This document shows, piece after piece, positions 9,834-57,448 of a DNA stretch of 64,000 nucleotides (within the stretch, counting starts at the first letter, position 1; each line of letters starts with the position of its first letter). This DNA is from Azoarcus sp. (GTDB lineage: Bacteria > Pseudomonadota > Gammaproteobacteria > Burkholderiales > Rhodocyclaceae). Under the pieces are notes generated by a model. The model ran no database searches and was not told the origin of the DNA. It saw nothing but the letters and a program-made list of their open reading frames with translations. The position numbers and the translations under genes were made by a program. The stretch is taken from contig JAITMK010000132.1 in NCBI GenBank assembly GCA_031277415.1, forward strand, positions 3,977-67,976. The letters are read 5' to 3'.

Positions 9834-10346
9834 ATGAACCAGATGCCCGATCCCCCTGTAACACGCACTCGACAGATCGGAGTCAGCCTGATCGAAGTGC
9901 TTGTTTCCGTTTTCGTGCTCGCCTTCGGCATCCTCGGCATTGCTGCCATGCAGGCCGGGGCATTGCGAAACAACCAGGGCGCGTTCGAGCAGAGCGCTGC
10001 CGTTTTTATCGCGCACTCCATTCTCGACGCCATGCGCGCCAGCATGGTGCACGACTCTGAGAACCCCGGCAGGCTGATCGTCCGCCAGGGCTATGCGACG
10101 GGTAATTTAATTTGCCAGGACAGCCAGATTTCCAGTACCGACACCCTCGTCGCAAACGATCTCAAACGCTGGCTCAAAAATATCCGCGACAACCTGAACG
10201 GCGGCGTGGCCGATGACAACGCCTGCGGCAAGATCGTATGCGACGTGGGCGACCCCAATCTCTGCACGGTATCGGTTCAGTGGAACAACAGCCGCTCCCT
10301 GGGCGGAAATGCGGCGCAGGTCGTGGAAACACGGAGCCGACTATGA
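9834..10346 (+). CDS. pilV: Type IV minor pilin PilV
   Basis: Class III signal G|[24 protein letters not shown]; C-terminal CTVSVQW. Confidence 0.9.
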
Positions 10347-11317
10347 CCCGCCTCCCTGTGAGCCCTGCCCTCTCCACCCAGCGTGGCCTGACCCTCGTTG
10401 AACTGATGATTTCCATGCTGCTGGGGTTGATCGTTGTCGGCGGCGTTCTGGGAATTTTCGTTGCCAACAGCGAAACAAATCGCCGCACGGGCGACCTTGC
10501 CCGCATTCAGGAAAACGCCCGCGCTGCCGTGCAATCCATAAGCCGTTCGATGCGCGAAGCAGGCGGCAATCCCTGTGGAATTCCTCCGGACAAGGGGCTG
10601 ATCATTCACACGGCAGACGCTCCGACAAGCAGTTGGTGGTCGGGCGGCGAAGGTTTCACATCAACCCTCAGCGGTTACGCAGGCGGAAACGGTTTTTCTG
10701 CCAATGGAAATGTGACGATGGTCGCCGGTAGCGACGCAGTCGTTACCGTCTCCGGCAACGCCTTTACCAAGGCCGTCATCAGCGACAGCCCGCCCGGCGG
10801 GCCGATAATTGTCCGCACGAGAGAAGGGTTCGCTGCGAACGATATTTTGTTTGCCTGTAGCATGGACAGAGGCTTGGGCGTGGTTTTCAAGGCAGGGGGA
10901 ATTTCCGCATCCGGAGCCAACTGGCAGATCAATCGCGCAACCCCTTTCGTGGGCACAGTCGCAGCCATGACAGCCACCTCTTTGGGGAAAGTCAACGCCG
11001 AAGGCTGGTTCGTCGGTGAGAACGTATGGGGCGGCACCTCCCTGTTTCGCGCATTCATCGGAGGCGGCGGGCAACCGGAAGAAATTGCCCAAGGCGTTTC
11101 GAACATGACGATCACTTATCTGTTGTCGGGCCAAGACCAATATGTGACTGCCGACGCAATCAACGACAATGACTGGCCAGGCGTTATCGCCGCCTACATC
11201 GAACTCACCGTCTCAAGAACCGGCAATAACGAGACCATCAACCGCACGGTCGGGCTGACCGTCAATCTCCGGAACAGGTTCGTATTGAACGCTACGGATG
11301 GAGAGACTTCGCCATGA
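10343..11317 (+). CDS. pilW: Type IV minor pilin PilW
   Basis: QRG|LTLVELMISMLLGLIV, RIQENARAA; ATGA overlap with pilV. Confidence 0.88.
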   Translation: MTRLPVSPALSTQRGLTLVELMISMLLGLIVVGGVLGIFVANSETNRRTGDLARIQENARAAVQSISRSMREAGGNPCGIPPDKGLIIHTADAPTSSWWSGGEGFTSTLSGYAGGNGFSANGNVTMVAGSDAVVTVSGNAFTKAVISDSPPGGPIIVRTREGFAANDILFACSMDRGLGVVFKAGGISASGANWQINRATPFVGTVAAMTATSLGKVNAEGWFVGENVWGGTSLFRAFIGGGGQPEEIAQGVSNMTITYLLSGQDQYVTADAINDNDWPGVIAAYIELTVSRTGNNETINRTVGLTVNLRNRFVLNATDGETSP

Positions 11318-31165: not shown

Positions 31166-31200
31166 ATTTTGATGAATTAAGAGAAGTCCGTATGAACGTT
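31166..31200 (-). promoter_or_regulatory. Putative late promoter, copy 3 (tail fibre/lysis)
   Basis: AACGTTCATACGG-N16-CAAAAT. Confidence 0.65.
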
Positions 31201-34200
31201 CAGTAACTGTATTCCTGGTACCCGAACACAGGCGCAAGCGGGTTAGACGTATCTCCCTCTATCATCTTCTCTATACCCTTGTACGATCTATTGAACTGCG
31301 TTGAGGGTAGACCAAGGTAAAGGCCAAGAACTTGAACAAATGATCTCCTGAGCGCACTATCTGCTTCGCCTTGCGATACCTGGATAAGGAAATTTCCAGT
31401 GTCGCCAATGACGCGAACACCAGCAGGGCCAGAGTACCCACGTAACCCCGGAACACCTGTAATCTGACGGGTAACGAAAGATAGCTCTCGCACAACCAGA
31501 AGCGTGCCCATCGCGTATTCAAGGTTGGCGTTCAGTATGCCTCTCAAGAATTTTTCAGGATCGTCCCATTCATCACCACCGCCCGGTATGAGCGCATTCA
31601 TCACGATGTAGGTGAGTATCGCCGGTAGGATAATGATTTGCGCAACGTCCTTTGTTAGGGCCGCGTACTCTGCTGGCGTCTCAGCTAGCATGTACTTGGC
31701 TGCCAGAAGGTTGAATGTACTATTGAAGTACGATGTGAACGGAGAAAGTACCCTCATCAAACCTTTTGAGCGATGCCATGCTGATAAATCCTTTATCTGC
31801 CCGCCTGCCTGAGAATCCAGTACCGCCTGTTCTGCCTGTGCAATGGCAGAAACCTCATCAGCACCGTTTGCAAGGGCTTTAGCTTTTGCACCGTAATATG
31901 TCGGCACGTCAACGAAGCGCTGACAGAATGAGATAAACAGGAACGAGTGATTTCTTATGGATGAAATAATCCCAGGCTCGTTGCTGCGTACCGTGTTCAT
32001 GACTTCGTTTATTTCTCGCATCAGTGTGCGTGCGCGGTTTGCCATCAACAGGCTTTCGTTTGCTGCGGCACGCGCTGCATCAATCGGCCCCATTCTCATG
32101 GATTCAGCCACACCATGCACGATCCACCGTGCACCAACCCTGTTGATACTCTGAACAATCCCGGTGAATTGCAGCGCTGAGGTTGTTGCGCTATAGCCCA
32201 TCGCAGCAATACCGACGTTTCGCGGTAGCCATGCACTTACTTCCTCTCCGTACTTCATAGCAAAAGATTCACCGATGGCGACATCTTTTATCCATTCCTG
32301 GAAACGTTTGTACATTTCCGCGCCACGTGTTTCACGCACTGCATTTTTAAATTCATTTGACCGTATCACTCTATTTGCGTTATGGACGGCCTCACGGTGA
32401 GATATGTCATGAATGATTTCATTCACGCCATTGAAGAGCGTTTGAAGACTAAGCAAGATTGGACGGTCAAACACCTCATTCACGCGCGGCTTTGCAAACG
32501 TTCTTCGCGTTGTAGCGGAAGTATAGGACGCTCTTTGTTCAAGTTTTGCTGTGTCTTCTCTTTCCTGCTGCTCTGCCCTGACGCTTGCTTTCGGGTCGTA
32601 CTTAATCGGGTAGTAACCACCGCGCAAGTGGTGTGTATTGCCTTCAGAATCTGTCACCGTGATTGCCTGCGGCTCTACCCATTGCGGCTCTCTCCCAAGC
32701 ATTCTGCGCTCAAGTGCCGCAATCAGCGGACGGTAAGTTTCGATAAAATCCCATATCTTTTGAACGGCTTCGACAGCTACAGGAGGTAGGTTTTTGAACG
32801 CTTCCTGTACATGCTGTGCTGTAAAGCCGTTACCGCCTTCAATGCGCTGCAAGTTTCCTTTATTCCCAGAATTGAGCGCGATGGAAAAAATTTGCTCCAT
32901 AGTGTAGCGCTTACCATTTCCGATGCTGTACTTCGCCGAGGTGATATTTCCTATGGCCTTCTTGACTGGTTTTAATATCTCATCGAGTGATACAAACCCA
33001 TCATGGCTCATCTGCGCTTTAAGATTCCCAGCATCATTTATGGGTTTGAGGAGCAAATCCCACAGCAACCCACCGTCCACGCCGCCGTCCAGTACGCGAA
33101 CATCCGTCGACGCCTTTATCTGACGAGAAAAGAAAATATCTATAGCCTCTTTCTTTTTCCCCCATGGTGTTGCCGGTGTTTCATTTACCCTTTCTTTTCC
33201 ACGATAGTTCTCACGGATATTTGACTGCATCGCGTCGAGCGAATCCAAAAAACGCTCATCACGCTTTCCTATTGCCGTGATCTGACGTACCGCTTCGCCA
33301 ACATCCAGCGCCTCTTCCAGAGTGAGTTTGCCCCACGGCTTTCTTTCGTTTTCGTCCGTTACGATATCGGCTAAATCGAGTTGTGGGCCTTCATTGTTTT
33401 CAAGCTGTTCCAGCCAGTCAGCAAGCGTCGTACCCTCTCTCGGCATTTCACCGGCAATAAACCTGTCAATGATGCGCCAGACCTGCTCAGAGTATCCAGG
33501 AAGGAGGTGGCGCCCGCGCTTGTTGTGGTTGAGAATGTATTTGTACTCACGCTTCGCACGGTTCAGAACCCTGTTCGCCTCATTTGAGAGCATCTGGTTC
33601 AAAACCTTTGTTCTCGTGAATGCCGCCGCCGTTTCAATGTCGCCTGACCTAAGCGCCTTTTCCGCCTCGGTTGCGTTCTTCTGCGCAGTCGCAGAAAAGC
33701 GTTGCGGATTGATATCATCAATCATCATGCGCGCGATAGCGACACGCGCGTATTCACGCGCTGCCGCGTTCATGAACCGCTGGCCGCCATACGCTTTTTC
33801 GAGCGCCGAAAGTTCTGTCTGAGAGAACCGCACCATTGCATCATTGGCTATCGCCTCATCTGCCGCGCGTTCTATCGCCTGCGGGGTCGCAAGCTCGCCG
33901 TGTTGTTCAAGCATCCGCGCGTCTGCAATTTGCGCAATGGCCTGCTCCGGCGGTGTCGCTGCGGCAAGCGCGTCAACGAGTTCAGCGCCGTTGTCGAACC
34001 CGAACATCCCGGCCACGATTTCAGGATGAAGACCGTCTTTCGCGGTCATGCCGCGTTCTCTCAAATTTGCGGAAGATTCTTTCCCAAAATCATCCAGTGC
34101 GCTAATATCCAACCGGCCAGCGCCAAGAGCCTGCGGGTTAGCAACCTGCTCGCCCGCCATTATCTCTTCAAGTATTCCGTATTCGTATGCGCTCGAATAC

Positions 34201-37200
34201 TGTGGCACCCCACGCAATTCATCGAAGAACGCACTCTCGAAGTACGTATTCGAGAAACTTGGATCATCAGGCAGGTAGCCAAGTTCCGTCAGCGCTTCTT
34301 CCATCTTCGAGACGCTCAATCCGCCCTTGTTGCGGATGACGATCTTCCAGCCCTTCGGAAGTGTTGCCTTCTCTTCCGGCTTTAACCCCCACAGGCTTGC
34401 AAGCTCCTCCCGGTTCATACCGCCAAGTTTCGATATAGCCTCGAACAGCGAATCAATCGATTCATCCACCTTACCGCGTGGCGTTGCTTTGCGTTGCTGT
34501 GGCGGTTTACCAATCCTGTCCTGCGGCCTGAGTGGCGCAGTCAGAAATTGCCATGCGCGATAAACGGGCTGACTCATCACCTCGCGCCGAGCATCCATCT
34601 CAGCCTGCGCGCGCGCCTGCGTTGCTTGGCGTTGTAGCCGCTTTATCTCTCGTCCTCTGGCGTAATGCAACCATCGCATGTCGCGCAGTGCCTTTGCCTG
34701 CATTGCGTCAGTTGCAACGCCTACGGCATCAGAGAACTGCTGCAAATATTCGTCGAACTCTTCCGGAGTCATGTTGGCGAGTTCTGCGTTATCAATCAGA
34801 GGCATCGATCCTCGCGCGCGCATCACTCTATTTATTTCCGCCTCAGAAGCAATCATCCGGTCAAACACGGCTCGTACAGCAGGCGTGAGTGTGACGTTAT
34901 GCGCCTTGAGTGACTTGTAGACGGAGCGGATGAAGTTCGACAGCCGACGAAATGCACGCATCAGCGCGGAAGATGGCGCAACACCCTCATGGATGTACCG
35001 CTCAAACCCTCTTGCAAGCTTCTCATGGTGTGGCGTTTGCTCATCAACCGTCATCTGATTCCACGCATCGATGGACGGCACGCCGAACCAGTCGAGCAAT
35101 GCTTGCGTGTCTTCAATGATTCGCCGCTCGCCTGCTGTGATGTCTGCTTCAGGCTTCATCGTGAATTGCTGCGACAAGTCGGCGTAGATGCTCAGGAACA
35201 TATGCCCGAACTCGTGTATTGCTGTGGATGAATCCTGCGTCTGCGTCAGTAAGATGAGGCGTTCTTCAAAACTCGTAAATCCTCGTGGAACGTCTTGCTG
35301 GACTGACTGGTAATAGTTCTCGCCAAGCCGATTGACAAGACGGGCACGAGAGAATACTCTTCTGCTGCCGTGGGAAAACGAGCCAATGGAATTGTCCCAG
35401 TAACTCCCCATCGCCGAGACCGCCCCCGCCCTTGTGGCCGCTGCGGTCTCACTGTTTTCTGGCCTTGACCTATCTCGTACATACACAGGCGATTTAGTAT
35501 TTGCTTTAAGTAATGCGGCAAGCCTTGCTTTAAGCCTATCCCATCCGCTTTCTACTACATCTCCTGCACCATCAGTAACGTTGTGCTGTGGAGTAATTGT
35601 TCTTATCTCTCCGTTACGGATACCAACGATTATTGGCTCGCCGTTCTGCGTCATCGCGTCAATGAGAACGTTCACACCACCTTCCGGTGCCGGATAGGAA
35701 AGCAACGGATCATGAAGGAAATCTGTAAGGTTCGTCACTACTTCTGACGGTATTTCGTGCCCATGATCACGCACAATCTTCTGCCAGTACGTAGGAGAAA
35801 ATGAAATCTCACCGCTTCTTACGCCCATCTCTCTAAGAACAGCAGGTGTTTTCATGCGTACCGTCTTGCCACGGTTTAGGTCGCCAATAGCATTGCGCCA
35901 GCGCGCAATTTCCGCTTCCAGCGTAGCCTGCGCAGCTTGGCTGAACCCTTCTCCTTGAACAATTCCACGAAGAATCCTGTGACCGTACTGCGCGTAGAAC
36001 GCTTCTGTCGTCACGCCTATATTTTGTGCAATCGTGTTGAACATTGACGAAGCCAATAACGCAACGTCAGCCGACTCTTTCGCCGGTCGGCCTGCCGCCT
36101 CAAGCTGCGTTCGGATATCATCCATGATCACGACACGCTGCGCGTCGAGCGCCGCCAATCTCGCATCCTCTGCCATGGCGCGCTCTATCGTCTCTCTCGT
36201 CTCTGTGTCTGCGTCAAACGCCTCACGCTGTGCGGGCGTTGGGATGTCTGGGTTGAACGTGGTGTGGAGTCGTATTTGATCAATTATTGCACTGTTCGGC
36301 GCTACGTTATTCGCAAACTCACGAAGGGATATCTGAACATACCCGTTTTCAGCAATCGGTTCCTGTAGCTGCTGCGCGGCTTCTGGTGAGACTGCTGAAA
36401 GCTGCTCTGATAGACCTTGCTGTGCAAACGCCTCGGATGAAATATAGACGGTTTCTACTTCGCTTTCTCTTCCTACGGCTTCCACAAAATCTGCGTATGC
36501 TTTTGGATCTCTCCTGATAAGATTAATGTCTTTAGAAAGATTAATTAATTGATCTAAAAGTCGTTGATGAAGTTCAGATACCCCTCCAAGAGATTCTTTT
36601 CTCAGCAGGTTGTCGATGCTACTCATGATAGCAACATTGCCTGCACTTCCGACGATGGTTGCTACAAGCGTCTGATAGGCCGCATCCGGGCGTTCTGAAA
36701 GGTACTCTACAAGATGCTGACCAAAGCCTTTTTCAGGGTGTTGAGCAGCCCGTATAAAAACCTGACGATTAAAATCTTGAATGAGCGTGGTTACTTGCTC
36801 TTGCGGCACCTCTTTCAACATAACATTGAATGCTGTTTTTAAGACGCCTGAGCGGTTAGCAATTCCACTTAGCGCAGCCATAAATGGGGCACGCTCTAGC
36901 AATGCTTCAGGAACGCCTTGTGACAGACCGTACAATGCCGCTCTTCCGGGTGAATAGCCCGCTCTTAATCCTTCTCCGTATTCTTCACCTCCTACCATGC
37001 CGCCAAACATTACCAATGGACCCCATGATCCAGCAGAATAAGCAGGAAGCGACATTACAAACTGCGTTATAGATTCAATGCCAGAATAAATAGCAGATTC
37101 AGTTTTTCCAGGATTTCCTATTACGCGCCAATCCGTGCTCTCTGCACGATGTTTCCATGCTTCTTCGCTTCTCTCCCATACCTTGCCCGCTCTACGAAAA

Positions 37201-37745
37201 GAGTCTTTATGTCCCCCAGGAATAAGATTTAACCACGGGTCAAATATCGGCGATAGAACATTTGTCATTGCAGCAGATATCCAACCGCTAAGACCTTCTT
37301 CACCTCTTAAATATCCTCTACCGGAGGCTCTGCCAATATTACGTACAATCTCCTCTAAACCGCCTAGCATTTCAATATCGTCGTGCGCAATGGCTGCAAA
37401 ATTTGGATCTGTCATTCTCCGCTGAAGTTGCGGGTAGTTCCGCATGACACTTCTTACCGCACGCACACGATTATGGTTGACGTAGGCATCCTGGTTTCTT
37501 TCTATAACAGAGACATCTACGCCGTAAATCTTAGCAAGGTTCTGCGCTTCTGCTGCCTTGTCAGGATTGCGCGGCATCGTCCGCTCAAGATACTCCTGAA
37601 ATTGAGCCGCCTGTTGTTCTTGCTCCTGTCTATGTCTTTTTGCGAAATTCTCAAACCATTCATCTTCAGATAAACGTTTATTTACAATAGGACGGCTTGT
37701 TAAGTCTATATTGCCTTGCTCAATAATATTATCTTGGTTTTCCAT
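31200..37745 (-). CDS. Large internal virion (ejection) protein, T7 gp16-position, polyvalent
   Basis: About 2180 aa; HEFGH zincin motif; BECR/MuF-C-like segment; likely ATG 37745 overlapping upstream stop. Confidence 0.75.
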   Translation of the reverse strand: MENQDNIIEQGNIDLTSRPIVNKRLSEDEWFENFAKRHRQEQEQQAAQFQEYLERTMPRNPDKAAEAQNLAKIYGVDVSVIERNQDAYVNHNRVRAVRSVMRNYPQLQRRMTDPNFAAIAHDDIEMLGGLEEIVRNIGRASGRGYLRGEEGLSGWISAAMTNVLSPIFDPWLNLIPGGHKDSFRRAGKVWERSEEAWKHRAESTDWRVIGNPGKTESAIYSGIESITQFVMSLPAYSAGSWGPLVMFGGMVGGEEYGEGLRAGYSPGRAALYGLSQGVPEALLERAPFMAALSGIANRSGVLKTAFNVMLKEVPQEQVTTLIQDFNRQVFIRAAQHPEKGFGQHLVEYLSERPDAAYQTLVATIVGSAGNVAIMSSIDNLLRKESLGGVSELHQRLLDQLINLSKDINLIRRDPKAYADFVEAVGRESEVETVYISSEAFAQQGLSEQLSAVSPEAAQQLQEPIAENGYVQISLREFANNVAPNSAIIDQIRLHTTFNPDIPTPAQREAFDADTETRETIERAMAEDARLAALDAQRVVIMDDIRTQLEAAGRPAKESADVALLASSMFNTIAQNIGVTTEAFYAQYGHRILRGIVQGEGFSQAAQATLEAEIARWRNAIGDLNRGKTVRMKTPAVLREMGVRSGEISFSPTYWQKIVRDHGHEIPSEVVTNLTDFLHDPLLSYPAPEGGVNVLIDAMTQNGEPIIVGIRNGEIRTITPQHNVTDGAGDVVESGWDRLKARLAALLKANTKSPVYVRDRSRPENSETAAATRAGAVSAMGSYWDNSIGSFSHGSRRVFSRARLVNRLGENYYQSVQQDVPRGFTSFEERLILLTQTQDSSTAIHEFGHMFLSIYADLSQQFTMKPEADITAGERRIIEDTQALLDWFGVPSIDAWNQMTVDEQTPHHEKLARGFERYIHEGVAPSSALMRAFRRLSNFIRSVYKSLKAHNVTLTPAVRAVFDRMIASEAEINRVMRARGSMPLIDNAELANMTPEEFDEYLQQFSDAVGVATDAMQAKALRDMRWLHYARGREIKRLQRQATQARAQAEMDARREVMSQPVYRAWQFLTAPLRPQDRIGKPPQQRKATPRGKVDESIDSLFEAISKLGGMNREELASLWGLKPEEKATLPKGWKIVIRNKGGLSVSKMEEALTELGYLPDDPSFSNTYFESAFFDELRGVPQYSSAYEYGILEEIMAGEQVANPQALGAGRLDISALDDFGKESSANLRERGMTAKDGLHPEIVAGMFGFDNGAELVDALAAATPPEQAIAQIADARMLEQHGELATPQAIERAADEAIANDAMVRFSQTELSALEKAYGGQRFMNAAAREYARVAIARMMIDDINPQRFSATAQKNATEAEKALRSGDIETAAAFTRTKVLNQMLSNEANRVLNRAKREYKYILNHNKRGRHLLPGYSEQVWRIIDRFIAGEMPREGTTLADWLEQLENNEGPQLDLADIVTDENERKPWGKLTLEEALDVGEAVRQITAIGKRDERFLDSLDAMQSNIRENYRGKERVNETPATPWGKKKEAIDIFFSRQIKASTDVRVLDGGVDGGLLWDLLLKPINDAGNLKAQMSHDGFVSLDEILKPVKKAIGNITSAKYSIGNGKRYTMEQIFSIALNSGNKGNLQRIEGGNGFTAQHVQEAFKNLPPVAVEAVQKIWDFIETYRPLIAALERRMLGREPQWVEPQAITVTDSEGNTHHLRGGYYPIKYDPKASVRAEQQEREDTAKLEQRASYTSATTRRTFAKPRVNEVFDRPILLSLQTLFNGVNEIIHDISHREAVHNANRVIRSNEFKNAVRETRGAEMYKRFQEWIKDVAIGESFAMKYGEEVSAWLPRNVGIAAMGYSATTSALQFTGIVQSINRVGARWIVHGVAESMRMGPIDAARAAANESLLMANRARTLMREINEVMNTVRSNEPGIISSIRNHSFLFISFCQRFVDVPTYYGAKAKALANGADEVSAIAQAEQAVLDSQAGGQIKDLSAWHRSKGLMRVLSPFTSYFNSTFNLLAAKYMLAETPAEYAALTKDVAQIIILPAILTYIVMNALIPGGGDEWDDPEKFLRGILNANLEYAMGTLLVVRELSFVTRQITGVPGLRGYSGPAGVRVIGDTGNFLIQVSQGEADSALRRSFVQVLGLYLGLPSTQFNRSYKGIEKMIEGDTSNPLAPVFGYQEYSY

Positions 37746-40047
37746 CCCACGGCTCCGGAACTTCATCATCTGAAGGTATTCTGCCAGGTCTTTCTGGCGT
37801 TTTTATTATTGTTGCACTCATAACGTTTTTATGTTTTGTTTTATCAAGATAATCCCTATATTCTTTAGCAATATAACGCATATTTGCATTCGGGTTAATA
37901 CTTTTTATTTTCTCAACAAAGTCAATAGGAATTGAAGAAATGCGCACTTCACGACCATCATCTAGTTTAATATAAAGATTTCCTTGTTCTCCTTCAGATA
38001 TACCCTTATAAAATGAAATTTCATTATCAGGCGAAAATGTATCACGCCTCATTACTTTATCATCAACAATTCTATTTAGAATTTCATCAAGATCTTTTCC
38101 TGTCGCTGTCCGCCCATTAATTGCTTTAAATTCATAAATTTCTTCCTGTACTCTGTACATAAATTCTATGAATTCCGGCTTCTCTTTTTCATTCTTTTCA
38201 GGCTCTTCGTTAAGTATTCCAATCTTTCTTGCAGTTCTAACAACAAGATTAATATGTGACAACAATTCTATACCTTTATTATTATCTTTATTATCATTGT
38301 TATTATCTTTATTATCATTGTTTATAAGATTTGCGCGCAACTTGGTTATTTCATCAAACTTGTTTCCAAGCCTTGATTTCAGGTTCGTCATTTCTGCATC
38401 AGTCAAGCTTCTCACAACATCATGGTTGGTGATGAGATGGACGTAAATTGCAGGATCTGGATCAGTCGGTCCTTTACGTAGCGCCTCTATCTGGCTCTTT
38501 ACTGATGACCTGTCCGTCTCGTGAATAGCCTCCCTGATAGACATGGGTAGTTCGTCGAACTTAAGCCCGGTTTGCTCGGAGTATCGTATCGCTGCTGCTT
38601 TTGCTTCTTCTCGCTCTTGCTTGACAGCATCATTCTGCGCCGTGTGCCGTTCTTTTACGTATTCAATTGCCCGTTTTCGTGCACGAGATGATAGGCCAGA
38701 AGCGTCTATATGCTCGATATATCCTTCAAGCGTTGGTCTTGCTGGCCTACCTCCTCCGCTTCCGAGTAAGCGCATGTTCTTCTCAACGTAGTCTTTCGTT
38801 TGCTTCCTGTTATCAGGCGTTCTATCATCGTTATTAAGCTGCCAGAACCAGTCGGATTCCTGTGTCCCTTGTTCTGCCTTTTTAGCCTTGGATACAGCAG
38901 CGTCAACCCACTTCTCTCCAGCGTTGTACGCTGCCCATGCCTTACCGATATTCCCGCCATACTTATCGACAAGTGCGGCAAGAAGCTCACTGCCTACCCG
39001 GTTATATTCTTCCGGTGTATCGTTTTGCGCTGGCTTTATACCGTGCCCAGGTTTTTTAGCCGTATCCGGCATGACCTGCATTTTGTACATTGCGCCAACT
39101 GGTGATCGCACAGGCTGACCACCTTCAATAAAATCCCTGTTACCGCTTTCTGACTGAGCGGTAATATTAAGCACCCTATCAAAATCGTTAGGTTTATACG
39201 CTTTCTCTCTATCTGAAATAAGAGTACTACCGAAAGCAATTCCTTTTTCATCCTCAACGAAATTAGATAAGGTGATATTATCCTTTATCTTATGCTGATG
39301 CTCCATGCCGCCATTGAACTGGTTGAAGTACGCAACCGCTCCGACCAAGTCGCCTTCATCTATCATCGCATTCAGGTTGTTCGAGTGCGCAGCAGAGACA
39401 ACGCCCTTCGCCTTCCTTCTCGCCTCGTCAATGTGCATCCCTGTGATAGACGAAAACCGCTCCGCCTCTTCAATGGCGCGTCGAGAGGCAGTTTCGACCG
39501 CTTCCGGGTCATTCCTCAACGCGATGATCTCGTCCGCAGCCTGCGCGATAATCGCCTGAGAGGCGCTTGCTTTCCACTTCTGCGCCTCGTTGTGCTCATG
39601 GCGCATCGCGCCCTCTTTGAAGCGCAAGAGTTCTTTTTGCTTGAACGCCTCGAAATACGCTCGCTGTCTGTCGTTTCCGAGCCCTCTTGAAACCTCAGCA
39701 CTGAATTCATCAAGGCGCTTCGTGTATTCATCAGAGAGTGCCTTACCCTCTTTTGGCAGCGCTGCTGCACCTTGCAGTGCGCCATATCCGTCCTGGCCTA
39801 ACTGCAATTCTATGGCCTTTTGCCGCACCTCTCGCGCTGCGTCATCCAAGCGCAGATTGTCCATTTCGTCACGGCGCTCATTTTCAATCTTGAAGAGCGC
39901 ACGCCCTGCATCGGTCATCACGCCCGCAAGCTGTGCATGTTGTGCAGATGGGTCTACGGACGGTACAGCAGCATGAAACCGGTTAGCTGTAGGTTGATTC
40001 AGCCCGACTGACGGCGCGTTATCGTTATAGGTGGGTACAGTTGGCAT
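37729..40047 (-). CDS. Internal virion protein with lytic transglycosylase (SLT) domain
   Basis: MPTVPTY start typical of this family; AQSES, MQVMPDTA, AYNAGE SLT motifs. Confidence 0.8.
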   Translation of the reverse strand: MPTVPTYNDNAPSVGLNQPTANRFHAAVPSVDPSAQHAQLAGVMTDAGRALFKIENERRDEMDNLRLDDAAREVRQKAIELQLGQDGYGALQGAAALPKEGKALSDEYTKRLDEFSAEVSRGLGNDRQRAYFEAFKQKELLRFKEGAMRHEHNEAQKWKASASQAIIAQAADEIIALRNDPEAVETASRRAIEEAERFSSITGMHIDEARRKAKGVVSAAHSNNLNAMIDEGDLVGAVAYFNQFNGGMEHQHKIKDNITLSNFVEDEKGIAFGSTLISDREKAYKPNDFDRVLNITAQSESGNRDFIEGGQPVRSPVGAMYKMQVMPDTAKKPGHGIKPAQNDTPEEYNRVGSELLAALVDKYGGNIGKAWAAYNAGEKWVDAAVSKAKKAEQGTQESDWFWQLNNDDRTPDNRKQTKDYVEKNMRLLGSGGGRPARPTLEGYIEHIDASGLSSRARKRAIEYVKERHTAQNDAVKQEREEAKAAAIRYSEQTGLKFDELPMSIREAIHETDRSSVKSQIEALRKGPTDPDPAIYVHLITNHDVVRSLTDAEMTNLKSRLGNKFDEITKLRANLINNDNKDNNNDNKDNNKGIELLSHINLVVRTARKIGILNEEPEKNEKEKPEFIEFMYRVQEEIYEFKAINGRTATGKDLDEILNRIVDDKVMRRDTFSPDNEISFYKGISEGEQGNLYIKLDDGREVRISSIPIDFVEKIKSINPNANMRYIAKEYRDYLDKTKHKNVMSATIIKTPERPGRIPSDDEVPEPWDGKPR

Positions 40048-48097: not shown

Positions 48098-48541
48098 TTA
48101 TAATCTCCTCATAAAAATACGTCCGGATTCTTTGAAAAGCTTGCTTCTCTCCATTGCTTTATGGAGGACTCCACCGGTTGGCGCGGTAACAACATATGAC
48201 CTTGCGCCAATCTCTTTAGCGATCCTTCCAGAACGCCTAAGTAATGACGCGCCCGCACCGGTATTTCTGTATTTATTACGAACGAAAAGCGCCTCAGTGA
48301 AGGCGTCTATCCGGTCATACTGGAGTTGATGAAAAACCGTTAAGATGCAAAACCCGACGATCTCTCCGTTTACATATGCACACAAAAGGATTGCAATACC
48401 TGCATCCTCAAGTTGTTTATAAGCATCAATATTTGGTTCGGGATTACCAAAACTTGAAGCCTCACGCGCGTACTCAGTGAGAAGCGTGTTTACATCAGCT
48501 TGCGCAAGTGCCTCATCGAATGTTGTTTGCCTTATATCCAT
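48098..48541 (-). CDS. GNAT-family acetyltransferase
   Basis: LFVRNKYRNTGAGASLL acetyl-CoA binding motif A. Confidence 0.78.
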   Translation of the reverse strand: MDIRQTTFDEALAQADVNTLLTEYAREASSFGNPEPNIDAYKQLEDAGIAILLCAYVNGEIVGFCILTVFHQLQYDRIDAFTEALFVRNKYRNTGAGASLLRRSGRIAKEIGARSYVVTAPTGGVLHKAMERSKLFKESGRIFMRRL

Positions 48542-50785: not shown

Positions 50786-50807
50786 GTGGGTAGTTTTGTT
50801 GATAGAT

Positions 50808-50836
50808 TGTGGATAATTTTACATTATTGTGGATAA
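50808..50836. promoter_or_regulatory. Two consensus DnaA boxes in direct repeat
   Basis: TGTGGATAA (reverse complement TTATCCACA) at 50808-50816 and 50828-50836. Confidence 0.5.
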
Positions 50837-50961
50837 CTTTTCGGAAAAATTTTCGTTTGTTTGATCTATATCAATTTGGTTTGTTTTGTGTGTGACTACA
50901 ATACAAACATGGATCGACGATCCAGCCGCGCCTCGGGAACTGTGGGCACAAGGAGTAAAAA

Positions 50962-51162
50962 ATGAAAAATACAAACACCATCGCTATTACCATCGAATCC
51001 CTGAAGTCCATAAAGGGCGATGTAAATAAAAATGTCGCCACGTACTTGAAGCAGCGCGGCATCAATGTGCTTGACGCAGACGTGGTAGTCACATGCCCGT
51101 CAGAACCAGGTCGAATCTGGGTCAAGCGTCCAGGCAAGTCTTCTGTCGATGCCTACGGCTGA
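50962..51162 (+). CDS. Small hypothetical protein (anti-defence candidate)
   Basis: AAGGAG RBS; 66 aa; antisense to flanking operons. Confidence 0.7.
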   Translation: MKNTNTIAITIESLKSIKGDVNKNVATYLKQRGINVLDADVVVTCPSEPGRIWVKRPGKSSVDAYG

Positions 51163-51192
51163 TGCGCTTACGCGGGATATTAGGAGAACAAA

Positions 51193-51660
51193 ATGATTTC
51201 AACTAAAACAGTCGATTTGGGTAATGGTCGCATCATCACCGTGACAGCAACCTGCACCGTCTCTGATGACATTAGCTACTCGGACGGTTGGAACATCAAC
51301 CTGGGTCGTAAGATTTCCAGGAAAGTAGTGTGCTCGGTCGAAAAAGACGGAAAAAATATTTGCAGCGGCGATTTTTGCCAAGTCGTTACCCCGGACGAAA
51401 AGCAGAGATACCCGGCGGCAGTCGGAAGTATCGCGGACAGTATCTACCTGGGCGCTGAATCTTTTGAAAAAGTCAAGACAGCATACGATGCGGCTGTCGC
51501 GGAAGCAGAAGAACCGGAAGCTAAGGAACTCGACGCTAAGGAAAAAGCAAGGGTCGAAGCCCTTGACGAAATGTACACAAAGTACGAGCCAACGCAGCGT
51601 CCATACGGCTGGTGCGATAAATGTCAATCGTGCTGTTACGGCGATTGCGAGGCAGCGTAA
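51193..51660 (+). CDS. Hypothetical protein with C-terminal CxxCxxCCxxxC cluster
   Basis: AGGAG RBS; WCDKCQSCCYGDC. Confidence 0.75.
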   Translation: MISTKTVDLGNGRIITVTATCTVSDDISYSDGWNINLGRKISRKVVCSVEKDGKNICSGDFCQVVTPDEKQRYPAAVGSIADSIYLGAESFEKVKTAYDAAVAEAEEPEAKELDAKEKARVEALDEMYTKYEPTQRPYGWCDKCQSCCYGDCEAA

Positions 51661-51737
51661 ACAGCAGTCGACGGGATCGATCTCGCGCAAGAGGAGCAGC
51701 GTGTTGGCAAAAAGATCTATCTTGCTGATGCCGTATA

Positions 51738-51773
51738 GCCGAAACGACAAACGCCTCCTGAGAGGCGTTTGTC
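51738..51773 (-). terminator. Hairpin terminating the repeat-containing RNA
   Basis: GACAAACGCCTC-N4-GAGGCGTTTGTC then GTTTC on minus strand. Confidence 0.65.
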
Positions 51774-51905
51774 TGAGAAGCCCTTTTCAAATATCGTTTC
51801 AATCCACGCGTCCCGTGAAGGACGCGACAACTACAAAGCGTAAAGGACAATCCCTTTACAAAGACTGTTTCAATTCAACGCCGGTCTAAACCGGCGACAT
51901 GCTGC
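51740..51905 (-). ncRNA. Candidate CRISPR-like RNA (tandem Racr/crlRNA), about 165 nt
   Basis: Promoter, repeat, pseudo-spacer, repeat, pseudo-spacer, terminator in one orientation. Confidence 0.6.
51796..51898 (-). CRISPR. Two divergent type I-C-like repeats separated by 38 nt (not a canonical array)
   Basis: GTCGCCGGTTTAGACCGGCGTTGAATTGAAAC (51867-51898) and GTCGCGTCCTTCACGGGACGCGTGGATTGAAAC (51796-51828); both with 7-bp stem and ATTGAAAC end; no cas genes in window. Confidence 0.8.
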
Positions 51906-51911
51906 GAGAGC

Positions 51912-51941
51912 AGAATATCACAGGAGCTATGATGTCATCAA
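51912..51941 (-). promoter_or_regulatory. Putative sigma70 promoter of the repeat RNA
   Basis: TTGATG-N18-TATTCT with TGn extension; predicted +1 about 51905, 7 nt before first repeat. Confidence 0.55.
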
Positions 51942-52192
51942 GGAATAAATCCATTTCACAGCGGATTCGCACGGCGGGATCTGCTGAACTACGATCTGAA
52001 ATCTACAATGAATGGGCTAAACACTGGGCAAGCAACCAGATGGCCATCATAGCGCGCATGGATCGTGCGCGCGAAAATAAGGACTGGGATCAAATAGCCG
52101 GAAACTTGGCGCAGCTTCATGCGCTTTCTGTGAAGATGTTTTCGGCGCTGCCAAATGTATTGTCTTTGCTCAATGACAATGGTGATTTATGA
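51929..52192 (+). CDS. Small helical hypothetical protein
   Basis: AGGAG RBS before ATG 51929; 87 aa. Confidence 0.7.
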   Translation: MMSSRNKSISQRIRTAGSAELRSEIYNEWAKHWASNQMAIIARMDRARENKDWDQIAGNLAQLHALSVKMFSALPNVLSLLNDNGDL

Positions 52193-52437
52193 CAAACCAC
52201 CCGAATCGTAACTGGCGACGCTGTTGGAAAGTTGATCTTTCCGCAGCAACGGCAACACACTCTGACGGATGGGTTTTCCACTTCGAGCGCGACGAAGAAG
52301 ACGGAGCCTGGGACGGCAGCGTGATCGACTGCCCGCCGCTTGAAGCTGAAACGTCCCCGGAATTCGCGCAACGAGCACTTCGCATCGCGCGCGAAGCAGG
52401 GGAAATCTACACCGAAGCCCTGGCGGAGAGACACTGA
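52189..52437 (+). CDS. Small hypothetical protein (MTNHPNR start)
   Basis: ATGA coupling to upstream gene; 82 aa. Confidence 0.7.
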   Translation: MTNHPNRNWRRCWKVDLSAATATHSDGWVFHFERDEEDGAWDGSVIDCPPLEAETSPEFAQRALRIAREAGEIYTEALAERH

Positions 52438-52438
52438 C

Positions 52439-52675
52439 ATGGCGCGGCCTCGTATTTATGCAAAAGGCACCACGGCAACGCAGCGCGTAGCCGCTTCAAC
52501 GGCGGCACTTGTCGCTGCCGGTGGTGCGCGTAAGACTTTCCGTTTATCACCGGATGCGATGGCCGCGCTACGCACACTGATGAGTTCGCCGGAGGCGCCT
52601 GACACAGAGACAGCTTTGATCGAGCGACTTTTGCTTGATGCTTCTATTACACAAGGGCGGCCTGAACGCTTTTGA
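52439..52675 (+). CDS. Small putative DNA-binding (ribbon-helix-helix-like) protein
   Basis: RKTFRLSPDAMAALRTL...TALIERLL pattern; GGAG RBS. Confidence 0.6.
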   Translation: MARPRIYAKGTTATQRVAASTAALVAAGGARKTFRLSPDAMAALRTLMSSPEAPDTETALIERLLLDASITQGRPERF

Positions 52676-52686
52676 AGAGCGGTTCG

Positions 52687-53097
52687 TCAGTCATCCGTAA
52701 TCCTCACAACTGTCAGTGGCGTCGCGCTGTACCGCTTCTCGATGTGCAGCGTGACAACCTGAGAATCGTCCGCGTAGCAAATGCCGTTGATGGCGTCCAG
52801 AACCGCTTTTGCGACGTTATCGGCATCAGGTTTTACGGTTGGCATCACCTCGCCATTAAGCGCCGCCTGACGCTTCTTTTTCGACCACGACGCAGGTACC
52901 GGGAAGCTAGAGATGACTTCAGCGGATACGGATCCCTCAATCGGCGCGAGGTCCCGCATGGCGTTCTTCGCGGCGAGTTTGACTAGGTTCTCGAAACTGG
53001 CGGTCTTCTCCGGCGTGTAGGCGTGCCCGCTCCGTGTAAAACGTGGCCTGGCTTTACCGACGGGATGGCCCGGGACGGTGAATAAGATGATGGTCAT
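52687..53097 (-). CDS. rusA: RusA-family Holliday junction resolvase
   Basis: GKARPRF, KPDADNVAKAVLDAING, YADDSQV. Confidence 0.9.
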   Translation of the reverse strand: MTIILFTVPGHPVGKARPRFTRSGHAYTPEKTASFENLVKLAAKNAMRDLAPIEGSVSAEVISSFPVPASWSKKKRQAALNGEVMPTVKPDADNVAKAVLDAINGICYADDSQVVTLHIEKRYSATPLTVVRITDD

Positions 53098-53315
53098 ACC
53101 CTTCCCCAACGAAGATCTTCAAGCCACCTTTCGCGCTCTTCGACGGTGCTTTTTTCGGCCTTTTCGAACTTGTCGCACACCCGCAGCCAGAACGGTTCTG
53201 TGAGACGACCGTATGCGCCAACTTTACACGCGGCAAGCCCTTTCTGTCGGTGCTCTGTCACTGCGGTCTCAAGGTCGCAGTGCTGGCAATCGATGCATCG
53301 GACGGCGGCGTTCAT
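53094..53315 (-). CDS. Small Cys-rich phage protein
   Basis: VRCIDCQHC...C...C; coupled on both sides. Confidence 0.6.
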   Translation of the reverse strand: MNAAVRCIDCQHCDLETAVTEHRQKGLAACKVGAYGRLTEPFWLRVCDKFEKAEKSTVEERERWLEDLRWGRV

Positions 53316-56788: not shown

Positions 56789-57448
56789 ATGCACGAAACA
56801 ATGAAACGCCTCTATACAGCAGCAAAAGAACTCAAAGCCATCTCCGGGCAGACTGAGGTTGCAAAGCTGCTTGGTGAATCTCCACAAACGGTAAATAATT
56901 GGGAGAAGCGCGGAGTCTCAACACAAGGAAGGTTGAACGCTCAAGCAATTATTGGTTGTGATGCGCTGTGGATAAAAACAGGCAAAGGCGTAATGAGTAT
57001 TTATACTCGGCGTGATGGTGTTTCCAGATTTGATGTCCTGGACGCTCGCGCATCCTGCGGTCCGGGCGCAGTCAATGCGGACTACCCCGTTGTCGTCCAA
57101 TCAATCGAGATGCCAAAGGAAATCGCCAGACAGTTGATCGGGCGCACAGATGACGCCGTGCGGATCATCCGCGCCACGCACGACAGCATGGTTCCAACGA
57201 TCAACCCGGACGACCTGCTGTTCATCGACACCACCGTCACAGAGTTCCAGGCGGAAGGTATCTATCTCGTATTGCACGGTAGGGAACTTGTCTGCAAGAG
57301 ACTATCTATCATCGGGAAGAGGCTCAAGGTTACGTCAGACAACAAATTCTACGAATCATGGCTTTGGGATGAAAGGCTAGAAGACGACCGCATCGTTGGG
57401 AAAGTTCTTCGCGCTCTACCGATGGACTTCAAAAATTTTGGGGGGTGA
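56789..57448 (+). CDS. cI: CI-like repressor with S24 peptidase domain
   Basis: QTEVAKLLGESPQTVNNWEKRG HTH; DSMVPT (Ser) and CKRL (Lys) autocleavage residues; CGPG cleavage-loop region. Confidence 0.93.
   Translation: MHETMKRLYTAAKELKAISGQTEVAKLLGESPQTVNNWEKRGVSTQGRLNAQAIIGCDALWIKTGKGVMSIYTRRDGVSRFDVLDARASCGPGAVNADYPVVVQSIEMPKEIARQLIGRTDDAVRIIRATHDSMVPTINPDDLLFIDTTVTEFQAEGIYLVLHGRELVCKRLSIIGKRLKVTSDNKFYESWLWDERLEDDRIVGKVLRALPMDFKNFGG

Follow-up and report, generated by a model that had tools for sequence, protein, structure and literature searches.

A candidate anti-defence operon with a recurrent leader element and I-C-like repeats in an Azoarcus prophage

Hypervariable cargo followed by a conserved regulator is the hallmark of operons that join anti-CRISPR (acr; CRISPR, clustered and regularly interspaced short palindromic repeats) genes to an anti-CRISPR-associated (aca) gene. 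The aca1, aca2, aca10 and aca12 operons have been described in a preprint as sharing a promoter DNA motif, an RNA motif that runs from the transcription start and a start codon in fixed position. Aca14 is an Aca of the ribbon-helix-helix (RHH) type (bioRxiv 10.64898/2026.07.27.740549), and AcrIE10 and AcrIF25 are bifunctional Acr-RHH fusions. Among RNA anti-CRISPRs (Racr) and the crRNA-like (CRISPR RNA-like) Cracr units, RacrIC1 adjoins AcrIC5, AcrIF24 is tightly and widely linked to Cracr, and both two-repeat units and two-spacer I-C Cracr arrays have been reported in phages. Here we analyse a stretch of 64,000 nucleotides (nt) of Azoarcus sp. DNA from a termite-gut metagenome contig (JAITMK010000132.1), referred to below as the window, in which a prophage carries five small plus-strand genes, orf1 to orf5, around a unit of CRISPR-like repeats. 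Our best explanation, with a probability of about 0.55, is that the five genes form one accessory operon of the acr-aca kind, for which an anti-defence role is plausible.

The five open reading frames (ORFs) are real genes. A sequence-only reading of this DNA had described five small rightward genes with ribosome-binding sites running opposite to all their neighbours, and this was borne out by Shine-Dalgarno sequences, by a second gene call, by codon scores and, for orf4 and orf5, by the existence of protein families. The gene caller of an independent assembly predicted the same five genes. When codon-usage log-odds were trained on the long genes of the window, the own frame of each of the five ORFs came top of the six, with scores comparable to those of rusA and terS; the long ORFs on the opposite strand (183 and 107 amino acids, aa) scored lower and are absent from the protein collection. 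Overlap and spacing indicate that orf3, orf4 and orf5 are translationally coupled. Alternative starts for orf3 lie at 51929 (87 aa, the choice of the sequence-only reading) and at 51899 (97 aa).

The leader of the operon belongs to a recurrent type. The region upstream of orf1 aligns with the leaders of three operons that end in orf5-like genes (L032, L034 and L009), the features in common being TACAAT as the −10, with TTTTGTGTG(Y)GAC before it, a hairpin that keeps its position but not its sequence, and a 3′ part in which CCGCGCCTCGGG and a few bases lead to (C)AGGGGC or TGTGGGC, with GGAG and ATG after that. The promoter itself aligns with those of the L032 and L034 operons, with the consensus TTGACT/TTGACA-TTTTGTGTGCGNCTACAWT. 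By an exact-pattern scan of IMG/VR for this element of the 5′ untranslated region (5′UTR), whose near-invariant formula is CCGCGCCUCGGG-N4-12-GGGC-N-GGAG-AUG, we identified at least 119 viral stretches (L057-L175). A start codon follows a few bases (nearly always 6-9 nt) 3′ of the element in 108 of 124 occurrences, giving at least 108 small operons. A sigma-70 promoter whose spacer forms a palindrome, for example TTGACAATACGCGCAATGCGCGTATTAT, usually stands upstream of the element, and the 27 nt before the element fold at −5 kcal/mol or below in 73% of 112 units, compared with 21% of shuffles. Two or three element-bearing units follow one another in L067, L130 and L146. The same element heads operons of the orf4 family in L002 (twice), L003, a Citrobacter plasmid, L032 and L038. 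Positions 50875-50961 of the window, together with orf1-orf5, have the make-up of these operons as compared across L057-L175 and L002, L003, L013, L032 and L038.

This family of loci resembles the acr-aca operons with dual DNA and RNA control (Aca2 and Aca1, and by prediction Aca10 and Aca12) in the operator-like palindrome inside the promoter, the hairpin at the transcription start, the fixed position of the start codon, the variable small cargo followed by a conserved small DNA-binding gene, and the tandem units. The window departs from them in that its promoter spacer lacks a palindrome, a known Acr is absent from its operon, and its regulator, a predicted RHH protein, has orf4 as an additional conserved partner. 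Its 5′UTR element also differs from those published Aca RNA motifs with which it was compared. The element matched no family in Rfam 15, four element-bearing loci included, and a full-text search of the literature for the motif returned nothing relevant. No covariation was detected in the core stem of the UTR, since this stem does not vary among the sequences selected by pattern. A motif of the promoter spacer, TTTTGTGTGNGNCTACA, was tried as a marker and rejected, its matches being mostly due to chance. In one element-bearing viral contig, L146, Rfam annotates at 177-370 a C4 antisense RNA, its a1/b1 targets and an isrK-like RNA.

The genes under the element are hypervariable, 124 cargo proteins falling into 104 clusters, and the operons close either with a small XRE helix-turn-helix (HTH) gene or with an orf4-like gene together with one for an RHH or HTH protein. 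By motif search, a conserved XRE-type HTH protein of ~72 aa comes after the cargo in 36 of 108 operons; it starts with MxNHPNR, as does orf4. Annotation was possible for a minority of 115 cargo proteins: RadC/JAB (3), AcrIC5 (PF22147, E 2.5e-9) and ArdC-N/anti-restriction proteins, and further DUF932, orphan C5 DNA methylases, a UvrD helicase, YccJ, DUF2958 and DUF6948. Cargo of this sort is typical of anti-defence islands and of the leading regions of plasmids. A search for the locus of the AcrIC5-matching protein gave no positive among the 20 candidates scanned and in two concatenated PDB searches. The M-x-N-H-P-N-R start is common to otherwise unrelated proteins of these operons, namely the ~72-aa XRE regulators, the orf4 family (52189-52215 in the window), DUF6948, a 137-aa protein and a UvrD-like helicase. 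Since the codons for NHPNR vary, the peptide itself seems to be under selection.

The last two genes of the window operon are its conserved end. The sequence-only reading had seen an RHH-like pattern in orf5, and we accept this on the strength of its AlphaFold2 model (predicted local distance difference test, pLDDT, 92.7), which has an N-terminal helix, an extended strand and two helices, of its top fold and profile matches, which are all weak and all to RHH proteins (Reg576, TCP domains and ParD), and of the match of 3 of 43 relatives to Pfam RHH_1. The family comprises 67 cluster representatives with the consensus MxRPRxHPxGTTAxxRVxAS..ALxxxGGARKTFRLSxEA..AL..L…TxT..IERLL, and its members terminate small operons with differing upstream genes. 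Aca proteins are generally small and have a DNA-binding fold, HTH or, in Aca14, RHH; being small and having a predicted RHH fold, orf5 is a candidate Aca-like autoregulator. Since an Aca represses its operon by binding an inverted repeat in the promoter, a 5′UTR RNA or both, the inverted repeat at 50910-50924 and the UTR element at 50927-50955 are candidate target sites. It is like Aca14 in its size, in its N-terminal helix and RHH core and in being encoded last in the operon. Membership of the Aca14 family (Pasteurella multocida) was considered and rejected, as BLASTP gave no alignment and hhalign a probability of 19% over a 39-column RHH core only.

For orf4 we found 34 homologues with an invariant N-terminus, MTNHPNRNWRxRW (MTNHPNRNWRR in the window), the lone viral match being an uncharacterised phage protein. 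In its structural model (pLDDT 86) four strands form a sheet that packs against a long helix, and neither profile nor fold comparison found a counterpart in the PDB (no fold match with E < 0.9). Members of the family are always beside, or fused with, a small DNA-binding protein: three homologues carry a C-terminal RHH domain, and elsewhere the downstream gene encodes a KorA-like HTH protein, a different RHH family, an XRE protein or, in L032, where the orf4-orf5 pair recurs, an orf5-like protein. The upstream gene varies. These neighbourhoods point to a conserved end, orf4 and orf5, and a variable part, orf1-3, in the operon, and orf4 looks like part of a conserved control module rather than an Acr. 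An Acr-like role is not supported for orf4, which is the regulator's conserved partner, is not variable, and occurs elsewhere with no link to CRISPR repeats. AcrIE10 and AcrIF25 offer a parallel in that orf4 relatives have an effector-like domain fused to RHH, with RHH exchangeable for HTH among relatives; however, RHH is N-terminal in AcrIE10 and C-terminal in the orf4 fusions, and the predicted fold of orf4 matches no solved Acr.

The five genes had also been said to flank an I-C repeat unit. The flanking holds and the single repeat does not, as the unit contains two I-C-like repeats, both of them minus-strand and antisense to the operon (Table 1). Both consist of a stem-loop and then an 11-12-nt tail ending in ATTGAAAC; the stem sequences differ and both pair, that of repeat A by compensation. 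About 21 nt 3′ of repeat A, at the start of the spacer-like segment, resemble the 21 nt 3′ of repeat B. We take both repeats to be of type I-C from the consensus and layout of I-C repeats. The unit folds much better than shuffles (z = −4.2), with both hairpins present in the minimum-free-energy fold. Further 3′, the perfect 12-bp hairpin lacks a canonical U-tract on either strand and is unlisted in the terminator scan; it may be the 3′ end or a protective hairpin of the small RNA. The putative promoter of this RNA was read by eye from the sequence and is unlisted by a consensus promoter scan. The unit has what characterises a Racr or Cracr, that is, CRISPR-repeat sequence and hairpin geometry outside a cas locus on a mobile genetic element, and like these it adjoins small protein genes; unlike them, it is antisense to an operon and embedded inside it. 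The 64-kb window holds no cas genes and no CRISPR arrays. Its spacer-like segments had no matches in the phage collection, and a scan for the repeat with the conserved downstream motif gave none in viral contigs and chance-level matches only in genomes, with no CreR-like RNA of a host among them.

A large protein search with orf3 found orf3 itself only. A relative with 34% identity was detected by tblastn on a Haemophilus parainfluenzae conjugative plasmid (L015, NZ_CP063125), and back-translated scans gave no others in the viral and genome collections, the lone metagenome match being the same plasmid. Directly upstream of the plasmid homologue, on the same strand, is an unannotated small-RNA-like gene (L015 24196-24340), placed between a gene for a 136-aa protein and the homologue in a cluster of small hypothetical genes after parA. 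It has a TTGACA-17-TACTAT promoter, a hairpin with an 11-nt tail, AGTGTTGAAAC, of I-C geometry, a 35-nt segment of spacer length and a strong rho-independent terminator. Type I-C is the most frequent CRISPR type in Haemophilus. When 1.1 Mb of element-bearing viral loci were scanned for a hairpin followed by TTGAAA[C/G/T], two canonical I-C-type repeats were found, in L153 and L097. In L153 the repeat belongs to a two-repeat I-C-like mini-array (9850-9957, minus strand) with GTTCGTCCCGTGTACGCACGGGCGTGGATTGAAAG, a 36-nt spacer and a degenerate second repeat. About 400 nt from it, and divergent from it as is the case in the window, is the third known member of the orf3 family (31% identity to orf3, phmmer E 5e-13), the second of a gene pair at 9994-10658 (plus strand) whose first gene encodes a 124-aa protein. 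This protein is homologous to the 136-aa protein of the Haemophilus plasmid, each preceding an orf3-like gene; the window has no counterpart, and orf1 and orf2 were rejected as relatives on comparison. In L153 the 5′UTR element is also present, upstream of the operon that comes before, and the gene string with the orf3 relative ends in an XRE gene, so that its gene order parallels that of the window. The repeat in L097 (1765-1801, plus strand) is a solitary one, with a hairpin and TGGATTGAAAC, ~360 nt from an element-bearing operon and divergent to it.

Thus an I-C-like crRNA-like gene adjoins all three known members of the orf3 family (window, Haemophilus plasmid and L153), a sample that is small yet striking, and of the five genes orf3 is the best candidate for an Acr or an RNA partner. 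It is orf3, rather than the set as a whole, to which the repeat RNA is specifically linked; relatives of orf4 and orf5 elsewhere have no I-C repeat beside them. By gene neighbourhood, the linkage is like that of AcrIF24 and Cracr. It differs from the RacrIC1-AcrIC5 pair in that orf3 is unrelated to AcrIC5, there being no Pfam match in a library that includes PF22147. The role of orf3 could also be another one, in a manner compatible with an acr-aca-type operon: orf3 may be a regulator, a stabiliser or a processing or loading factor of the crRNA-like RNA and not an Acr, or, in a variant, the RNA may be a real mini-CRISPR for competition between mobile elements and not a decoy. The relatives are basic (pI 9.4-9.8) and helical with a conserved basic N-terminus, R-x-x-S-I-S/T, unlike acidic DNA-mimic Acrs; they are linked to the RNA gene in either orientation; and the RNAs have spacer-length segments of 35-38 nt between the repeat and a second repeat or hairpin. 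However, no DNA- or RNA-binding domain was detected in orf3 with Pfam, PHROGs and NCBIfam. Nor is there a convincing protospacer, the best case, 24/27 between the Haemophilus RNA spacer and Mannheimia P2-like phages with no protospacer adjacent motif or seed match (E 0.6), being judged due to chance, and AcrIF24-Cracr is a precedent for a true Acr tightly linked to such an RNA. We regard this role for orf3 as possible and lean against it.

A different reading is that of an ordinary early or moron unit with miscellaneous cargo for host takeover, in which the element is a general expression signal of phages and the proximity of the RNA is incidental. It would account for the large share of the 115 cargo proteins that have no annotation, for the orphan status of orf1 and orf2, for the single copy of the element in the prophage and for the presence of I-C-like repeats in only 2 of 119 element-bearing viral loci. 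It sits poorly with the annotated minority of the cargo, which is consistently of anti-defence or leading-region type, and with the two I-C-type repeats per 1.1 Mb, a density far exceeding chance for a hairpin with an 11-mer tail; one of these two loci, L153, encodes an orf3 relative, and hypervariable cargo with a conserved regulator is what acr-aca operons are known for. We consider it unlikely.

Relatives of orf4 lie near integrases at prophage ends (L002, L003 and L006) and on plasmids (Citrobacter IncFII and Sulfuricystis, and L038 beside a relaxase), and in L035-L037 (5001-5632) an orf4-RHH fusion of 132 aa and a gene for an acidic protein of 78 aa form a lone insert between the chromosomal genes lpxB and cysS, found in ~20 contigs. 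This last cassette has its own promoter with a palindrome, TTATGCGCATAA, and the 5′UTR element is absent from it. Such a distribution recalls type II toxin-antitoxin systems with RHH antitoxins, which are likewise small two-gene cassettes with an RHH autoregulator, found in prophages, on plasmids and sometimes alone in chromosomes; RHH proteins commonly serve as antitoxins, and weak matches to the Antitox_RHH, VapB and ParD models were obtained with a few relatives of orf5. That orf4-orf5, perhaps with the whole set, is a selfish addiction-type cassette or another lysogeny moron with an RHH autoregulator, unrelated to counter-defence, is nevertheless the least probable explanation, since the orf4 model resembles no solved toxin or antitoxin fold, Pfam and PADLOC gave no toxin match, fusion of orf4 to RHH is atypical for a toxin-antitoxin pair, the partners upstream of orf4 are hypervariable and not a fixed toxin, and the same 5′UTR element heads operons with AcrIC5, ArdC-N, RadC and DUF932. 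An acr-aca-type operon accounts better than either this or the ordinary-unit explanation for the range of cargo, for the fusions and for the link to the RNA.

The proposal of protein anti-CRISPRs with their regulator is supported in part, by architecture, through the shared leader, the type of cargo, orf5 as a predicted RHH protein in the regulator position and the adjacency of orf3 to the RNA; homology lends it no support, with no match to an Acr or Aca family. As the sequence-only reading had also stated, none of the five is a recognisable Acr: no match was found in Pfam (which includes Acr models such as PF22147), PHROGs, PADLOC and NCBIfam for orf1-orf5, or to an Acr among PDB sequences and folds. 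Several points weigh against an operon of the acr-aca kind. No known Acr, Aca, toxin or defence family is resembled by any of the five (Pfam, PHROGs, NCBIfam and PDB sequences, with folds compared for orf4 and orf5), and a validated acr gene is absent from the operon of orf5, in which matches to known Acrs are zero. Among the 115 cargo proteins of other element-bearing operons, only one matches an Acr model and most have no annotation. The −35 of the operon promoter is poor, and the five genes may be divided into two transcription units at the hairpin that separates orf2 from orf3. Relative to the operon the repeat RNA is antisense, with a promoter and a 3′ end that are putative, and the linkage of orf3 to such RNAs appears from three cases only. 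Finally, orf4 and orf5 relatives lack I-C repeats elsewhere, and orf4 cassettes are also solitary in the chromosome, as between lpxB and cysS.

The prophage occupies ~32 kb of the window and adjoins tRNA-Ala and tRNA-Glu. All recognisable phage genes around the island (replication genes, rusA, terS and terL) are on the minus strand, so that 50786-52686 is the sole plus-strand block of the region of interest; the G+C content of its left two-thirds is 0.41-0.50, compared with 0.54-0.63 in the flanks. No similarity was found between the island DNA and the phage collection, an Rfam search over the island region gave no matches, and uptake sequences of Neisseriaceae and Pasteurellaceae were looked for and are absent. 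The two first genes are orphans. For orf1 there were no family matches (Pfam, PHROGs, PADLOC and NCBIfam) and no tblastn matches, and among 5.8 billion proteins orf2 has no homologue besides itself. The orf2 protein contains 9 Cys in total, with CDKCQSCCYGDC at its C-terminus, and a Cys-rich motif, GWCDKCQSCCYGDCEAA, ends it (51598-51660), so that this acidic and otherwise orphan protein may have a tail that binds metal or is rich in disulfides.

Upstream of orf1, in the divergent region that separates it from the minus-strand gene of 60 aa, there are two perfect DnaA box complements (TGTGGATAA) at 50808-50816 and 50828-50836, spaced 20 bp apart and overlapping a consensus promoter match, TTGATA-17-CATTAT. 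With a third at 56967-56975 the window has 3 copies of the box, compared with 0.28 expected. The prophage has podovirus-like head genes with Head-tail_con and Bbp19 domains, and it encodes a 2189-aa protein (31200-37769, minus strand) and, between terL and the portal gene, a GNAT acetyltransferase (48098-48541, minus strand).

Table 1. Positions, strands and properties of the features of the island and its neighbours in the window.
Feature	Position	Strand	Description
Putative operon promoter	50875-50902	+	weak −35 TTTGGT, 16-nt spacer TTGTTTTGTGTGTGAC, −10 TACAAT (50897-50902); putative function
7-bp hairpin/inverted repeat	50910-50924	+	TGGATCG-A-CGATCCA; predicted mRNA 5′ end
Conserved 5′UTR element	50927-50955	+	CCGCGCCTCGGGAACTGTGGGCACAAGGAG; includes orf1 Shine-Dalgarno; sole copy in window
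orf1	50962-51162	+	66 aa; AGGAG 7 nt upstream; basic, pI 9.5; orphan cargo
orf2	51193-51660	+	155 aa; AGGAG upstream; acidic, pI 4.7; orphan cargo
Perfect 12-bp hairpin	51746-51773	either	GACAAACGCCTC-N4-GAGGCGTTTGTC; 22 nt 3′ of repeat B (minus), 86 nt 3′ of orf2 (plus)
Repeat B	51828->51796	−	GTCGCGTCCTTCACGGGACGCGTGGATTGAAAC; canonical I-C geometry: GTCGC, 8-bp stem, 4-nt loop, 11-nt tail TGGATTGAAAC
Spacer-like segment	51829-51866	−	38 nt between repeats A and B
Repeat A	51898->51867	−	GTCGCCGGTTTAGACCGGCGTTGAATTGAAAC; variant I-C-like, different stem, same architecture
Putative repeat-RNA promoter	51914-51941	−	TTGATG, 16 nt, TGtGATATT (extended −10); overlaps orf3 ribosome-binding site and start
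orf3	51932-52192	+	86 aa; AGGAG 51922-51926; basic, predicted helical
orf4	52189-52437	+	82 aa; acidic; ATG overlaps orf3 stop (ATGA)
orf5	52439-52675	+	78 aa; basic; starts 1 nt past orf4 stop; GGAGAG upstream
rusA	52687-53109	−	Pfam RusA, E 2e-37
Other neighbours		−	83-aa HTH gene, 60-aa gene, terS, terL

What is established here is the presence of the genes, repeats and conserved element, together with how the families are related and what surrounds them; the activities are proposed. We envisage an operon with an early-type promoter and a structured 5′UTR, followed by fast-evolving cargo (orf1-3) and a closing control module (orf4 and orf5). Transcription of the plus strand would begin near 50909, and the cargo proteins would be made first and act on host defences. 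Later an RHH dimer of orf5, probably acting with orf4, would repress the operon at the promoter DNA, at the 5′UTR RNA or at both. A minus-strand small RNA of ~150 nt with the two I-C repeats may be loaded by putative type I-C Cas proteins of the host and would either titrate them, as a Racr does, or redirect them, as a Cracr does. As the protein partner of this RNA, orf3 could be a cooperating type I-C Acr or a factor that the RNA needs.

The island is built from undescribed protein families and falls within a known kind of locus, that of regulated anti-defence genes with RNA anti-CRISPRs. A larger joint claim, which we advance tentatively and would not expect to hold in full, has two parts. 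The first is an apparently undescribed and widespread control of anti-defence cargo by the 5′UTR element (CCGCGCCUCGGG…GGGGCUGGAG) and proteins that begin with M-x-NHPNR (XRE, the orf4 family and others), with orf4 and orf5 as its RHH version. The second is that the orf3 family is the dedicated partner of I-C crRNA-like RNAs, and hence the I-C counterpart of AcrIF24-Cracr, either as a new AcrIC or as a cofactor of RNA anti-CRISPRs.

If the operon is of the acr-aca kind, the 1.8-kb island would yield three new candidates for anti-defence proteins, orf1, orf2 and orf3, and orf5 would represent a new family of RHH regulators with a conserved partner. The orf3 family could then serve as bait for type I-C RNA anti-CRISPRs. 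The most useful outcome would be the short and near-invariant 5′UTR element, which already heads over 100 operons rich in unannotated cargo, both in viral contigs and on plasmids; as a regulatory sequence it would provide a cheap handle for the discovery of anti-defence genes, as Aca-binding sites proved to be earlier.

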